Part shown: positions 18,828-22,279 of the stretch, piece by piece
How positions within the stretch are numbered: the first letter of the stretch is position 1
How the letters are laid out: each line of letters opens with the position of its first letter
Source of the DNA: a virus
IMG/VR virus record: IMGVR_UViG_3300048080_000240
Location: 1 to 40,419 of that record
DNA: 40,419 nt
Direction: 5' to 3' (one strand)
The notes under the pieces: model-generated
Databases searched by the model: none
Seen by the model: the letters and a program-made list of their open reading frames with translations, nothing else
What the model was told of the DNA's origin: nothing
Position numbers and translations under genes: made by a program

Positions 18828-19232
18828 TCAAGGTTTGAGGGTGGGATCAGGCGTCAGCTTCCTGAGCTTGACCGGCACCTCGTCCTCCGCAAGCCTGGCG
18901 CGTGGGTGGCCCGTCAGGCCTTGGTTGTCCCGGCGGACCTGAATCCCGATCCAGAGCTTCCCCTGGTAGGCGGCGTGGAGAACCCGCCAGATTCGATGCG
19001 CGACCTCGAGCGTGGGCTCGCGGCGGGCACGCTCGATCTGCTGGATGGTGCCGGCGGTGAGCCCGCAGAGGGCGCCGAGCTCGCGTTGAGTCAAGACCGG
19101 ACTGCATGCGCGGCGAGCCCGCACCAGCCAGGTGCGGAAGGCATCGGGCGAGGGGATTCGCCACTTAGCATCATAGCGCCCGGTGGCGATGGCGCGCGGC
19201 GGGTTGTAGAGCGGTGGGCGCTTCGGCCTCAT
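18828..19232 (-). CDS. XRE-family helix-turn-helix protein (134 aa)
   Basis: LTQRELGALCGLTAGTIQQIERARREPTLEVAHRI is a classic HTH_3 motif. Start ATG 19232 is chosen because it forms an ATGA overlap with the upstream gene; the track ORF extends to 19427 in an Arg-rich shadow. Confidence 0.7.
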   Translation of the reverse strand: MRPKRPPLYNPPRAIATGRYDAKWRIPSPDAFRTWLVRARRACSPVLTQRELGALCGLTAGTIQQIERARREPTLEVAHRIWRVLHAAYQGKLWIGIQVRRDNQGLTGHPRARLAEDEVPVKLRKLTPDPTLKP

Positions 19233-19480
19233 TCCTCTTCCATCGTGCACATGGGCGGCCCGTGGTAGCCGTGGCAGCCGGGGCAGAAGGGCAGCAACCC
19301 TTGCGGGTCCTCTTCTTCGTCCTCGGCCTCCGGGTCCTCTTCCTCTTCGTCCTCTTCCTCGCGGTTGCACTCGCTTTGATGCTCGGCCGTGCAGGCTTGG
19401 CAGTAGTGCATGCCGCAGGACGAGCACTCTTGGACGTCCTCTTGATGATCCTCAGCGCAAAAATCGCAGAGCGTGAGCAA
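19229..19480 (-). CDS. Cys-rich zinc-finger-like protein with a poly-acidic insert (83 aa)
   Basis: CDFCAEDH...CSSCGMHYCQACTAEHQSEC, then NREEEDEEEEDPEAEDEEEDPQ, then FCPGCHGYHGPPMC. Translationally coupled (ATGA) to the HTH gene. Confidence 0.65.
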   Translation of the reverse strand: MLTLCDFCAEDHQEDVQECSSCGMHYCQACTAEHQSECNREEEDEEEEDPEAEDEEEDPQGLLPFCPGCHGYHGPPMCTMEEE

Positions 19481-19482
19481 GG

Positions 19483-20175
19483 CTACGTCCCCCCTTCCTT
19501 CTTGGCGTAGTAGTCGAGCACCAGGCCGATCAGGGCAGCCGCGTCCGCCGGCGCCAGGTCGGATATCTCCAGCTCGGCGCGGGCATGGTAGCCCGCGTGG
19601 GTGCTGTCGATCCAGCGGGACCTGGTGTGCGCCTTGGCCGTGATTCGCACCGTCGGACAGCAGGTGCAGTCGTTGCCACCCGGCACAGTCCCGGCAGTCC
19701 GGTAGGTGCCGCTGTCGTTGTCCGCATCATCCCATCGGCTTTCGGCGCCAAGTTTCTCCCGCAGGGATTCGATCGTCTCGCGGGCTACGTCGGCGGCCTC
19801 GCGCCAATCCGCCCGCTCGGCGCAGATGAGTGCATGCTGGGCCAAGTAGGCCCCGAGTTGCAAGCGGTTGGCGAGCGAGAGAGCGGCGACCGCTGGGAGA
19901 CGATCGAGCGCGCAGGTGATCGGCTTCCAGTCCTCGGTAGGGTAGCAGCCCTGGGGCCAGGCATAGCTCACGCGAAGTCGGCCCTCGCTCTCCCGGCACC
20001 AGAGCGAGGGCAGGCCCTCCGGCCCCGGTATGCTCGTAAACCCTTCGATGAGCCGGCCGGGGAGCGTGATCGAGAAGCGCCCCGAGGGGTGAGTGACCAG
20101 TACGCCGCCGAGACGCCGCGCGAGCGCCTCGGCAATCGCTTCCGCTCCGGTGGCGGTGGCGGGCGGGGGCGTCAT
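19483..20175 (-). CDS. Hypothetical protein (230 aa)
   Basis: Start ATG 20175 (MTPPPATATG...) forms an ATGA overlap with the small TM ORF. The track ORF's TTG start at 20289 is less likely. Confidence 0.6.
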   Translation of the reverse strand: MTPPPATATGAEAIAEALARRLGGVLVTHPSGRFSITLPGRLIEGFTSIPGPEGLPSLWCRESEGRLRVSYAWPQGCYPTEDWKPITCALDRLPAVAALSLANRLQLGAYLAQHALICAERADWREAADVARETIESLREKLGAESRWDDADNDSGTYRTAGTVPGGNDCTCCPTVRITAKAHTRSRWIDSTHAGYHARAELEISDLAPADAAALIGLVLDYYAKKEGGT

Positions 20176-20297
20176 CGGACGATCATCCCATCGAGCGCGC
20201 GTGAGACAGCGCGGAAGCCGGGCAGGGTGAGCGTGGCAAAGATCCAGACAATGACCGCGCCGGCGGCCACGTTCAGGAAGAGAGCCCAAGCTTTCAT
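20172..20297 (-). CDS. Unlisted small membrane protein (41 aa)
   Basis: Hand translation gives MKAWALFLNVAAGAVIVWIFATLTLPGFRAVSRALDGMIVR. ATGA overlaps at both ends link it to the flanking genes; one clear TM helix. Confidence 0.6.
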   Translation of the reverse strand: MKAWALFLNVAAGAVIVWIFATLTLPGFRAVSRALDGMIVR

Positions 20298-20716
20298 GGC
20301 GTCATCGCTCCTTCTAGGGTCAGGTCGTTAAGGTCCTCGGTCTGCGTGATGTCGAAGACGGGCACCATCACGTAGCGCATGCCGCGGGATGAGGTCTCGC
20401 CGGGTTCAAGGTTAGGATCCTCGGCTTTCCGCGCCGGCGCGAAGATGTAGCCGCAAGCGTGCTCGCCGGCGCACACGGCCCGCCCCGCCTTCTGCCATTG
20501 CCTGTAGCCGCCCACCTGAGCGCAAAGGCGCCCGGTCTGGTGGGCGAGGAACACGGTATTGAAGACCGAGAGCGGTCGGCCCTCGGCGGTGACGGTGCCG
20601 GCGGCCTCGGCAAGAGCTGAGCGCTCGGCGTCGGACATGGCGGCGACCTTGTCGGAGACGGCGCGGAGCCCCGCCCGCCATTCGGCGACTTCTTCGGGTG
20701 AACGTTTGGAACGCAT
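20294..20716 (-). CDS. ArdC N-terminal-like (DUF1738) ssDNA-binding / antirestriction-type domain protein
   Basis: LSVFNTVFLAHQTGRLCAQVGGYRQWQKAGRAVCAGEHACGYIFAP matches the N..L...Q...T..QW...G..V.KGE pattern of ArdC-N as I recall it. No metalloprotease domain is attached. Confidence 0.5.
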   Translation of the reverse strand: MRSKRSPEEVAEWRAGLRAVSDKVAAMSDAERSALAEAAGTVTAEGRPLSVFNTVFLAHQTGRLCAQVGGYRQWQKAGRAVCAGEHACGYIFAPARKAEDPNLEPGETSSRGMRYVMVPVFDITQTEDLNDLTLEGAMTP

Positions 20717-20806
20717 CGCTTTCCCTTTCCCCCGCCGGCCATCATCGGGCGCGGTTAAGGCGGGGATTCCCCGCGCGACAGCGCCCCCGCGGGCGCCGTT
20801 TCGGCC

Positions 20807-21616
20807 TTAGACCGGGAGCCGCCCTTGGCCTCCGGGCAGGGCACCCGCCGCGCGGCCGCCGATCGTCATAGAGTCGGCACACGTCCGGCCGGCGGCCCGA
20901 GCCGAGCCATCCACTTGACCGTAACGGACGCTGCTCGATCGGTAGTGGATGCCGGCCAGCGTTCGCGCGGCGGTCATCGCTTCGCGGTGTCTGAGCCGGG
21001 CGTGGATGAGGGCGGACTCCACCTTGACGAGTGCGACCCCGCGCGCGGCAGCATCCTCGGCAAAGGAAGCCCGTGCCGCCTCGACGGCTGCCCGTAGCCG
21101 CTCCCCGATCCGCTCGACGGCGCCCTCCCGGAAGCTCCGCCCGTAGACGGCGCCCATGCCGCGCGCGGCGCGGGCCGCGGCCTGGTCCACTTGGCGGGCG
21201 ATCAATGGGAAGAGATAGCGCACGGTGTCCACGTCCGCCGCCCGCCCGACCATGTGCAGCGTGATCTTAGGCGGTGTCCAGCCGGGGTCCTTGCGGTAGA
21301 TCCCGCGTGAGTGCTCGCGCCCCTTGTAGGGAGCGCACCCGTTCGCCTTGGCTAGATGCCAGGCCAGGGACCAGCGCCAAGCCGGAACCGTTTGCCGGCC
21401 GAGCTCGCCTACGGGGTCCCCGCCGTTGCCCGTCGCGACCATAGGACCAGGGTCCGCCTCCGGGTCCGATTCGTCCAGCATCCCCGAGTCGAGGCTGTAT
21501 CGCGCCATGACTTCTTGGGCTTTGCCGGCGGCCGCGGCGGCCTCCTCCGGCGTGCCCGCCTTGTCGGCGAGTCGGAGCAGAGCTGCCGCCCGCCGCCTTG
21601 CCTCTTCGATTCTCAT
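20807..21616 (-). CDS. DUF2786-domain protein (269 aa)
   Basis: The N-terminus MRIEEARRRAAALLRLADKAGTPEEAAAAAGKAQEVMARYSL is the DUF2786 signature. ATG 21616 has an AAGGAAAGGAAAG RBS; the track ORF begins upstream at 21712. Confidence 0.6.
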   Translation of the reverse strand: MRIEEARRRAAALLRLADKAGTPEEAAAAAGKAQEVMARYSLDSGMLDESDPEADPGPMVATGNGGDPVGELGRQTVPAWRWSLAWHLAKANGCAPYKGREHSRGIYRKDPGWTPPKITLHMVGRAADVDTVRYLFPLIARQVDQAAARAARGMGAVYGRSFREGAVERIGERLRAAVEAARASFAEDAAARGVALVKVESALIHARLRHREAMTAARTLAGIHYRSSSVRYGQVDGSARAAGRTCADSMTIGGRAAGALPGGQGRLPV

Positions 21617-21633
21617 GTCCGCTTTCCTTTCCT

Positions 21634-21933
21634 TTACGCGCGCACCAGGACGGTCTCGGCGTAGGTACCCTCGCGCATCGTCTCGCCGGCGGCCATTGGC
21701 CAGACCTCGCACCAGTCGCGCGCCTCGGACACGAGACGCACGGCCGTCACTCCCTCGGGGTTGCGGGCATAGGCGAGCAACGTCCGGCGAGCCTCAAGGT
21801 GAGTCATGCCGTAATGCTCGAAGTCCAGCTGATCCCCGCTCCAGACCTGCACGGTCCAGCGCTCGTCCTGAGATCGGTTCCCCCCGCAGCAGTTCTCGCC
21901 GCAGATCGGTCCTCCAGTATCCTCTTCCATCAT
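21634..21933 (-). CDS. Hypothetical protein (99 aa)
   Basis: Tandem ATGs at 21933/21930 are preceded by GAGAGGGAGAGG. MMEEDTGGPICGENCCGG... Confidence 0.55.
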   Translation of the reverse strand: MMEEDTGGPICGENCCGGNRSQDERWTVQVWSGDQLDFEHYGMTHLEARRTLLAYARNPEGVTAVRLVSEARDWCEVWPMAAGETMREGTYAETVLVRA

Positions 21934-21944
21934 CCTCTCCCTCT

Positions 21945-22148
21945 CTACCAGTCGCCAAACGTACAGACCGGGCCGCAGCCCGACTCCAGGCAATCATGGG
22001 GCTGGATCGGCCCTGAGAGCGGCCGGAGCCTCGACCACCGCCGCGCCGGCGCCCCGGCCAGAAGCTCATCGCACCGCGGGCATCCCGGGGTCAGTCGCCC
22101 CCAGAGCGGCCCGCCGCAGCTATGCTTCGTCCTGTCTGTCCGCTTCAT
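21945..22148 (-). CDS. Small Cys-rich protein (67 aa)
   Basis: MKRTDRTKHSCGGPLWGRLTPGCPRCDELL...HDCLESGCGPVCTFGDW. ATG 22148 forms an ATGA overlap with the upstream small ORF. Confidence 0.55.
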   Translation of the reverse strand: MKRTDRTKHSCGGPLWGRLTPGCPRCDELLAGAPARRWSRLRPLSGPIQPHDCLESGCGPVCTFGDW

Positions 22149-22279
22149 CGTTCCCGCACCTTGCGCCAGCCTAGATACTCGCGCAACAGCTTGGCGTGCT
22201 CGCTCCCGCCGCGCCACTCAGCTAAGGCGATTGCTTGTCTGACCGCCGCCAGCGCCCGGCCCGTCCACGTGTTCCTCAT
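22145..22279 (-). CDS. Unlisted first gene of the leftward operon (44 aa)
   Basis: Hand translation gives MRNTWTGRALAAVRQAIALAEWRGGSEHAKLLREYLGWRKVRER. GGAGGGAGGA lies about 8 nt upstream of ATG 22279. The stop overlaps the next gene's ATG. Confidence 0.55.
   Translation of the reverse strand: MRNTWTGRALAAVRQAIALAEWRGGSEHAKLLREYLGWRKVRER

Follow-up and report, generated by a model that had tools for sequence, protein, structure and literature searches.

We examined an operon of 9 genes on the minus strand of IMG/VR virus record IMGVR_UViG_3300048080_000240, the whole of which (positions 1 to 40,419; 40,419 nucleotides) is referred to here as the window. The operon consists of 9 consecutive open reading frames (ORFs), here called g1 to g9, which extend leftward from the start codon of g1 at position 22279 to the stop codon of g9 at position 18828, and encode proteins of 44, 67, 99, 269, 140, 41, 230, 83, and 134 amino acids (aa) in that order. 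These ends and sizes matched exactly those of the original prediction, made from the sequence alone, which had described 9 chained leftward genes and proposed that they form an anti-defence or host-takeover module. The genes and their associated features, in the direction of transcription, are as follows:

22330..22392, minus strand: promoter island, the only strongly conserved block in the 840-bp upstream region as aligned with the nearest relative (L003, see below)
22145..22279, minus strand: g1, 44 aa, basic protein with an isoelectric point (pI) of 11.5, without a known family and restricted to the window
21945..22148, minus strand: g2, 67 aa, Cys-rich, ATGA overlap with g1, no known family
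21634..21933, minus strand: g3, 99 aa, acidic protein (pI 4.6) of no known family, with an N-terminal Cys cluster, restricted to the window
20807..21616, minus strand: g4, 269 aa, DUF2786 (residues 7-43) and DUF7168 (residues 74-196), phrog_421
20717..20806, minus strand: g4-g5 spacer, 90 nucleotides (nt), with a hairpin at 20799-20778 right after the g4 stop codon
20294..20716, minus strand: g5, 140 aa, stand-alone ArdC N-terminal domain of the single-stranded DNA (ssDNA)-binding type, no metallopeptidase domain
20172..20297, minus strand: g6, 41 aa, single hydrophobic helix, joined to both neighbours by ATGA overlaps and restricted to the window
19483..20175, minus strand: g7, 230 aa, no known domain, from a family that is tiny and diverged
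19229..19480, minus strand: g8, 83 aa, TTG start codon, acidic and zinc-finger-like, four CxxC pairs plus His/Cys
18828..19232, minus strand: g9, 134 aa, helix-turn-helix (HTH) regulator of the HTH_3/HTH_31 type, the last and most conserved gene
18782..18829, minus strand: terminator-like hairpin, whose stem (18829-18790) overlaps the g9 stop codon and is followed by the tail UCUUCCUU (18789-18782)

The G+C content at third codon positions (GC3) was 0.76 to 0.84 in each of the 9 genes, and a sliding frame plot chose the annotated frame for every one of them. Gene g2 was not called in the source assembly (the gene calls used for comparison were those of the Logan assembly of run SRR35513625), yet its GC3 value was 0.84, its frame signal was right, and it overlaps g1 by ATGA. 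It was also noted that the source gene caller placed the start of g3 one codon later (98 versus 99 aa), at a site with 2 adjacent ATG codons. Purine-rich Shine-Dalgarno sequences were located before most of the genes, and g2 and g7, the starts of which lie within ATGA, depend on overlap coupling. Overlaps of this kind were identified at 4 of the 8 junctions (g1/g2, g5/g6, g6/g7, and g8/g9), one fewer than first counted, and the remaining junctions contained gaps of 11, 17, 90, and 2 nt.

The family labels initially given to g4, g5, and g9 were confirmed by Pfam matches above the cut-off (DUF2786, ArdcN, and HTH_3, respectively), and nothing was found for g1, g2, g3, g6, and g7 in Pfam, PHROGs, or NCBIfam, in agreement with the earlier statement that most of the other members lack a recognisable family. 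The descriptions of the smallest proteins were also correct, in that the Cys-rich g2 protein carries 6 Cys residues and the putative transmembrane protein encoded by g6 is hydrophobic, with a grand average of hydropathy (GRAVY) of 1.19.

The operon had been described as reading from a TTGACT-type promoter to a hairpin terminator, and both signals were recovered in part. A -35 element TTGACT (22362-22357) is separated by a 17-nt spacer from an extended -10 element TG-a-TAGGCT (22342-22334), and both are located within the conserved island, although no promoter was listed by a scan for the strict sigma-70 consensus. The island also holds TTCACATTT (22389-22381), TTGACA (22378-22373), and repeated TGAC(A/T) elements, and no clear conserved inverted repeat was seen in it besides these repeats; TGATAGGCT occurs as a single exact copy in the window. 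The rest of the 840-bp intergenic region has diverged from that of the relative, such that the conserved stretch comprises only about 60 nt. At the other end, the hairpin at 18829-18790 has a folding free energy of -35.4 kcal/mol and a z-score of -4.92, and none of 200 shuffled sequences was equally stable. The hairpin was not listed by the terminator scan because its tail is UCUUCCUU rather than a run of U. Taken together, the 9 genes, the conserved promoter, and the strong hairpin provide good support for a transcription unit, the signals of which deviate from the textbook form of Escherichia coli.

The first 127 nt of the window (1-127) were identical to the last 127 nt (40293-40419), and an ORF at 40048-40419 runs on into 2-1387 across the closure point. 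The identity of the ends indicates that the phage genome is complete, being either circularly closed or terminally redundant, and that it comprises 40,292 unique bases. It contains genes for a portal protein, a major head (capsid) protein, a terminase-like protein, internal-virion-like proteins, an M15 endolysin, and a tail or injection protein of 1513 aa, as well as for RusA and a DUF1376/primosomal-like protein. The latter (30426-31301) is a candidate replication gene and is located, like RusA, among the rightward genes and apart from the operon. All of the remaining genes in the window are encoded on the plus strand, and 18828-22279 is thus the sole leftward unit. It is convergent with a rightward block downstream of the lysis genes (14148-18467), headed by a second HTH gene, and divergent from the rightward early genes, from which it is separated by 840 bp of non-coding DNA. 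Among the ORFs of at least 250 aa in the complete genome, no integrase, recombinase, partition protein, or protelomerase families were detected, nor were any families of single-stranded DNA-binding protein (SSB), helicase, primase, or polymerase.

The nearest relative is an uncultivated phage of 41.3 kb (L003, L004, L089), which is represented in IMG/VR as well as in samples from ENA and JGI. The L003 genome has the same plan, with a leftward operon of 11 genes, here called h1 to h11, at the same place, and 5 of the 9 operon proteins have homologues in L003 in the same order. Sequence identities were 54% for g4 and h3, 59% for g5 and h4, 37% for g8 and h9, and 67% for g9 and h11, whereas the similarity between g7 and h5 was marginal. 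In the alignment of g8 and h9 all Cys and His residues were matched, and the acidic insert was shorter in L003. No counterparts were found in L003 for g1, g2, g3, and g6, and 6 genes in the L003 operon had no counterpart in the window; a search of PHROGs with the variable genes of L003 gave no match. A third phage fragment, JGI 3300043331, which is known from its gene table only, encodes proteins of 112 and 137 aa, a DUF2786/DUF7168 protein, an ArdcN protein, proteins of 143, 79, 350, and 76 aa, and an HTH_3 protein of 134 aa, and this operon likewise converges on the late block. No match to the operon was found by blastn among 50,697 phage records. The common gene order in the related phages indicates that the order of the core genes is conserved and that the small genes are replaceable. 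By these comparisons, g4, g5, g8, and g9 are well conserved and g7 weakly so, and g1, g2, g3, and g6 are replaced.

The spacer between g4 and g5 is of similar length in all 3 phages, with 90 nt in the window, 93 nt in L003 (9908-10000), and 93 nt in the third phage. It is 77% identical in the window and L003, and the hairpin that follows the g4 stop codon is kept through different sequence. The z-score of the spacer fold was -0.1 in the window, which is not significant, and -2.45 in L003. The hairpin could be an element for RNA processing, stability, or attenuation.

The central protein of the conserved core is g5. Judged by its match to the Pfam family ArdcN (PF08401; residues 41-108, 27.9 bits versus a cut-off of 22.6, E = 3e-6), g5 is a true homologue of the ArdC N-terminal (ArdC-N) domain. 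The protein ends after this domain, and neither a peptidase family match nor an HExxH motif was found in it; the remaining operon members also had no peptidase match in Pfam, PHROGs, or NCBIfam. Four relatives (P0003-P0006) of 136 to 142 aa were 49% to 63% identical to g5, and further short forms of 123 to 141 aa, with ArdcN as the sole Pfam match, were identified in L090-L097, L129, L010, and L011. In total, g5 was tied by phmmer to 135 fetched loci. The nearest of these were stand-alone proteins of 123 to 142 aa, mostly from viral contigs, whereas the more distant ones were proteins of 270 to 640 aa in which ArdcN was combined with peptidase domains of the M78, DUF6782, or MPTase-PolyVal type. 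One distant ArdcN protein was fused to a TraG-type coupling protein and can therefore be regarded as a genuine ArdC-like protein encoded by a conjugative element. The short forms accounted for 11 of 53 viral loci versus 3 of 74 genomic loci, and g5 thus belongs to a short, protease-less ArdC-N subfamily that is enriched in viral contigs.

Matches to g5 were also obtained in 29 plasmid records, nearly all of them from actinobacteria, where the annotation was in most cases that of an ArdC-like ssDNA-binding protein; one of these genes was located 4 kb from a MobF relaxase gene. No match was found by tblastn against the phage records. In other phages, the short ArdC-N gene adjoins genes for RadC-like JAB proteins (L091 8598-9035 and L096 9256-9732), an SNF2 helicase (L091 9032-11002), and a DUF3560 protein (L090 8371-9153). 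RadC and SNF2 are among the domains that fuse with ArdC-N in the polyvalent proteins of early establishment (Iyer et al., PMC5512222), and these neighbourhoods look like polyvalent-protein domain combinations that have been split into separate genes.

The only members of the ArdC family that have been characterised act against restriction. In ArdC of plasmid R388, the N-domain comprises residues 1-134, and the protease-dead mutant E229A fully retained its anti-restriction activity (PMC7213743). Since the protease is dispensable in R388 ArdC, a protein that consists of the N-domain only is a plausible functional unit. Identification through structure models, which had been proposed along with the original prediction, was unsuccessful, in that the AlphaFold2 (AF2) models of both g4 and g5 had no significant match in the PDB. 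For the g5 model, with a mean predicted local distance difference test (pLDDT) score of 65.8, the best matches were nevertheless the R388 ArdC structures 6sna_F and 6i89. A profile of g5 and its close relatives did not reach R388 ArdC in a search of the PDB.

The g7 protein belongs to a family with few known members. Searches with g7 gave no match among viral contigs and recovered only g7 itself among 5.8 billion clustered proteins, and an exhaustive HMMER search of 1.84 billion representatives identified a single credible distant relative, P0009 (E = 9.5e-4); 2 further matches were dismissed as repeats or low-complexity sequence. In the alignment of g7, h5, and P0009, motifs were located in a common order, and a profile of the 3 sequences identified a fourth member at 5165-5947 (minus strand) of L132, an IMG/VR element of 105 kb. 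This gene is located 1.6 kb from, and divergent to, a gene for an ArdC-like protein of 424 aa (7593-8867, plus strand), and in L003 there is an overlap between the g7-type gene and the end of the ArdC-N gene. An ArdC-N gene was thus located within 2 kb of 3 of the 4 known members of the family, which suggests that g7 may be a partner of g5, in place of the zincin protease of ArdC. Neither g7 nor the family profile had a sequence match in the PDB. It was also noted that P0009, on a contig of 1.9 kb (L154), is preceded by a protein fragment of 344 aa (2-1036) with the motif ILYISDFDPAGYG, which had no sequence match in the PDB.

The g4 protein matched both DUF2786 (37.9 bits, cut-off 23.9) and DUF7168 (48.5 bits, cut-off 25.5) in Pfam, and phrog_421, a family of unknown function, with an E-value of 4.8e-28. 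Besides the homologue in L003, a protein with 64% identity (P0011) was identified. The AF2 model (pLDDT 65) consists of an N-terminal helical hairpin and an alpha/beta-plus-long-helix domain, for which no significant PDB match was found either by sequence or with Foldseek. In BFVD, 20 uncharacterised DUF2786/DUF7168 proteins from diverse phages were matched at E < 1e-3, and g4-like folds are present in large lytic phages such as PhiW-14, phiM12, and AR9/PBS1. No match to g4 was found by tblastn among the phage records or among 72,556 plasmids, and when other DUF2786/DUF7168 proteins were used as queries, the tblastn matches in phages were limited to hypothetical proteins of AR9/PBS1 and of a Vibrio phage.

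DUF2786 proteins had been called typical of plasmid leading regions, which is unsupported, because g4 had no plasmid match. Genes of the g4 type were identified in 7 other viral contigs, none of which had an ArdC-N neighbour according to profile hidden Markov models (HMMs), and in phage AXL1 a DUF2786 gene is located inside the replication module (PMC9206674), with genes for DNA polymerase, SNF2, DUF2815, Cas4-like, and Prim-Pol proteins as neighbours. Conversely, none of about 130 other ArdC-N loci contained a g4-type gene, even when profile HMMs were used. The larger neighbours of the g4-type genes in the 5 contigs that were scanned included genes for DNA methylase, DUF932, and terminase, and were not consistent. 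A general pairing of g4 and ArdC-N genes was therefore rejected, since no co-occurrence was detected by profile HMMs beyond this phage group.

The g8 protein corresponded to its earlier description as a zinc finger with a poly-Asp/Glu insert, in that it contains 10 Cys residues in CxxC pairs and a 27-residue insert, mostly Asp/Glu, that separates the Cys clusters. In total, it has 27 Asp/Glu residues and only one Lys/Arg residue, and in Pfam it produced only sub-threshold matches to zinc-ribbon, RING, and B-box families. Both g8 and h9 are strongly acidic (pI 4.1), as are the DNA-mimic anti-restriction proteins. The g9 protein matched HTH_3 with 31 bits (cut-off 23) and also exceeded the Pfam cut-off for HTH_31, and its only matches in NCBIfam were weak and sub-threshold, to repressors of the RstR type and antitoxins of the HipB/HigA type. 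A metagenome scan with the g9 alignment identified nothing beyond the already known relative.

We favour, tentatively and as a possibility rather than a probability, the reading that the operon is an accessory or "establishment" operon of a novel double-stranded DNA (dsDNA) phage, read by the host RNA polymerase. The coding anatomy, the conserved promoter, the position as the sole leftward unit, and the core order shared with 2 other phages support this reading, and the viral enrichment of short ArdC-N proteins, their RadC/SNF2 neighbours, the location of g7-type genes next to ArdC-N, the acidic nature of g8, and the placement of RusA and the candidate replication gene outside the operon are consistent with it. 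An anti-defence or establishment role is plausible by analogy, because anti-restriction by R388 ArdC needs no protease.

Under such a scheme, the operon would be read early from its host-type promoter, as suggested solely by the type of promoter. The g5 protein would bind single-stranded phage DNA, in the form of entry, replication, or recombination intermediates, and may protect it against nucleases or defence sensors of the host, as the N-domain of ArdC does for conjugative plasmids, with g7 possibly standing in for the zincin protease as its partner. The product of g9, at the 3' end, may feed back on the promoter region with its TGAC(A/T) repeats, like the Aca (anti-CRISPR-associated) regulators in acr-aca operons. 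The small Cys-rich, acidic, and membrane proteins would be host-interaction factors, some of which may inhibit defence systems. A more specific version, in which g5 and g7 form a split, phage-adapted ArdC-like system that together with g4, g8, and an Aca-like g9 constitutes a new type of establishment operon, with at least one of the orphan proteins inhibiting a defence system, is in our view doubtful.

Several observations weigh against an establishment or counter-defence role. Positive signs of anti-defence activity were obtained for none of the operon members, which in Pfam, PHROGs, and NCBIfam matched no family of proven function, anti-defence or other, and the g5 model aligned to ArdC with E-values of only 0.24 and 1.1 and a template modelling (TM) score of about 0.22. 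Phage DNA enters the cell in double-stranded form, and the mechanism of plasmid ArdC does not therefore transfer directly. No clear inverted-repeat operator for g9 was found, the g4-type genes elsewhere lack an ArdC-N neighbour, and DUF2786 is a replication-module gene in AXL1. Furthermore, the identities of 37% to 67% between the core genes across the phage group are more like those of a needed function than of a dispensable counter-defence. An interpretation of the operon as a hot spot of unusual variability was also rejected, as turnover was alike in the other non-structural regions: counterparts in L003 were found for 6 of the 11 rightward early genes, and turnover was similar in the post-lysis block.

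The only recognisable anti-defence family of this phage group is located outside the leftward operon, in the rightward early operon of the relative (L003 5222-5449, minus strand), where a gene for a protein of 75 aa belongs to the Acb2/Tad1-hairpin family. This is a known family of sponges that act against the defence systems Thoeris and CBASS (cyclic oligonucleotide-based antiphage signalling system). A gene of this type in the window was considered and rejected, as there was no Pfam match among the rightward early genes of the window, and the one window protein compared directly with the L003 protein, encoded at 25356-25616 (86 aa), did not align with it.

The real rival to the establishment reading, which we regard as rather unlikely, is that the operon is an accessory module for replication or recombination, in which g5 acts as an SSB or annealing mediator, g4 and g7 are its partners, g9 is the regulator, and the small genes are incidental. 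An ssDNA-binding function would otherwise be missing from the genome, given that the larger ORFs yielded no match to an SSB, recombinase, helicase, primase, or polymerase, and the conservation of g4, g5, and g9 across the phage group, the AXL1 replication module with its DUF2786 gene (PMC9206674), and the g4-like folds in large lytic phages all fit with such a function. Moreover, the ArdC-N domain is ancestral to the Tc-38 proteins, which bind to replication origins (PMC6222260). However, the DUF1376/primosomal-like gene and RusA are located elsewhere, among the rightward genes, the characterised bacterial ArdC-N proteins all function in establishment or anti-restriction and not as replicative SSBs (PMC7213743, PMC5512222), and g4 and ArdC-N are unlinked outside this small phage group.

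It is also conceivable, and to us improbable, that the genes are unrelated accessory "morons" that share only a promoter and a terminator, and that some of them are conserved because the phages share a recent ancestor, not because the genes are selected together. The absence of 4 of the 9 genes from the nearest relative, the lack of linkage between the g4 and g5 families elsewhere, and the similar mosaicism of the other non-structural regions are as expected for such genes. Yet the order of g4, the spacer of 90 or 93 nt, g5, the zinc finger, and the HTH gene has been kept in 3 phages at 37% to 67% identity while the intergenic DNA has diverged, and the g7 family recurs beside ArdC-N genes; the conserved core order, in particular, is hard to reconcile with an assembly of unrelated genes.

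An operon for lysogeny, immunity, or maintenance, with g9 as a CI-like repressor and the other proteins acting in the prophage state through superinfection exclusion or host modulation, is the least probable of the readings and very unlikely, because no integrase (nor any recombinase, partition, or protelomerase family) was detected among the ORFs of at least 250 aa and the HTH gene is distal, being the last of 9 and 3 kb from the promoter rather than at a divergent operator as in lambdoid immunity regions, and ArdC-N and DUF2786 are not lysogeny functions, even though the operon is the sole unit transcribed against the rest of the genome, has a host-type promoter, ends with a gene that weakly resembles RstR-type repressors and HipB/HigA-type antitoxins at sub-threshold scores, and is accompanied by a second HTH gene (14148-14480) with a host-type promoter of its own.

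The operon shares features with several known systems. In acr-aca loci, a strong promoter is followed by several small genes of low conservation, and the 3'-terminal gene is a conserved one of the HTH type; the operon resembles them in that g9 is the last and most conserved gene (67%) and g1, g2, g3, and g6 are unconserved; it differs in being much longer, in containing the large conserved genes g4, g5, and g7, and in having no visible inverted-repeat operator. The pL operon of phage lambda is a leftward early operon that is divergent from the rightward early genes and contains accessory, recombination, and host-modulation genes. The operon studied here has the same orientation relative to the rightward early genes, but unlike pL it is not associated with an N-like antiterminator, Red-type genes, an integrase, or an excisionase, and the non-coding junction of 840 bp lacks a repressor gene.

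As in ArdC of the IncW plasmids R388/pSa (PDB 6I89, 6SNA), g5 has an ArdC-N domain and is about the size of that domain (1-134), whereas it lacks the zincin metallopeptidase domain and is encoded by a dsDNA phage rather than in a conjugative leading region. ArdC-N is also the second commonest domain in the polyvalent proteins of early establishment, for which a role immediately after entry has been proposed (Iyer et al. 2017, PMC5512222). Here, the proteins are instead encoded by separate small genes, and the operon yielded no match to MPTase, RadC, SNF2, or any further polyvalent domain. Finally, plasmid leading regions (Samuel et al. 2024, PMC11541004; pLS20, PMC8708921) likewise contain an ArdC-type gene in a unidirectional cluster of small genes that is presumed to be the first expressed, but the operon is located in a phage, g4 has no plasmid match, and there is no context of an origin of transfer (oriT), relaxase, or ssDNA promoter.

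On present evidence, the operon is a block of mostly hypothetical genes of the kind commonly seen in uncultivated phages. Its novelty lies in a protease-less phage ArdC-N subfamily, a possible new partner family, and a conserved pairing of the ArdC-N gene with a DUF2786/DUF7168 gene in one small phage lineage. If the operon does serve establishment or counter-defence, a protease-less, ArdC-type protection of DNA, known from conjugative plasmids, would be used also by dsDNA phages, the widespread DUF2786/DUF7168 phage family (phrog_421) would gain its first functional handle, and one or more new anti-defence proteins would be expected, with g7, g8, g3, and g2 as the candidates. If it serves replication or recombination, it would represent an ArdC-N-based single-strand-binding module for phages that lack a classical SSB or recombinase.

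A few other features of the genome were noted. About 700 bp of non-coding DNA (22393-23119) separates the leftward promoter from the first rightward gene (23120). This segment is strongly strand-asymmetric, G-rich on the plus strand and C-rich on the minus strand, and poorly conserved relative to the related phage; no Rfam family was matched anywhere in the window, this segment included. It could hold an origin, a packaging site, or a rightward early promoter. The terminase-like gene (27279-29009) mainly matched phrog_38407, of unknown function, and a terminase PHROG only partly. The DUF1376/primosomal-like gene is situated between the terminase-like and portal genes, which is an odd site for a replication gene. 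The block at 14148-18467 is of unknown function and includes DUF7694 and phrog_19042. A second host-type promoter (TTGACT, 18 nt, TAGGAT) was identified at 14113-14150, upstream of the HTH gene at 14148-14480, the product of which is 66% identical in the related phage. This promoter ends 6 nt before the ATG codon, and the mRNA is therefore probably leaderless.

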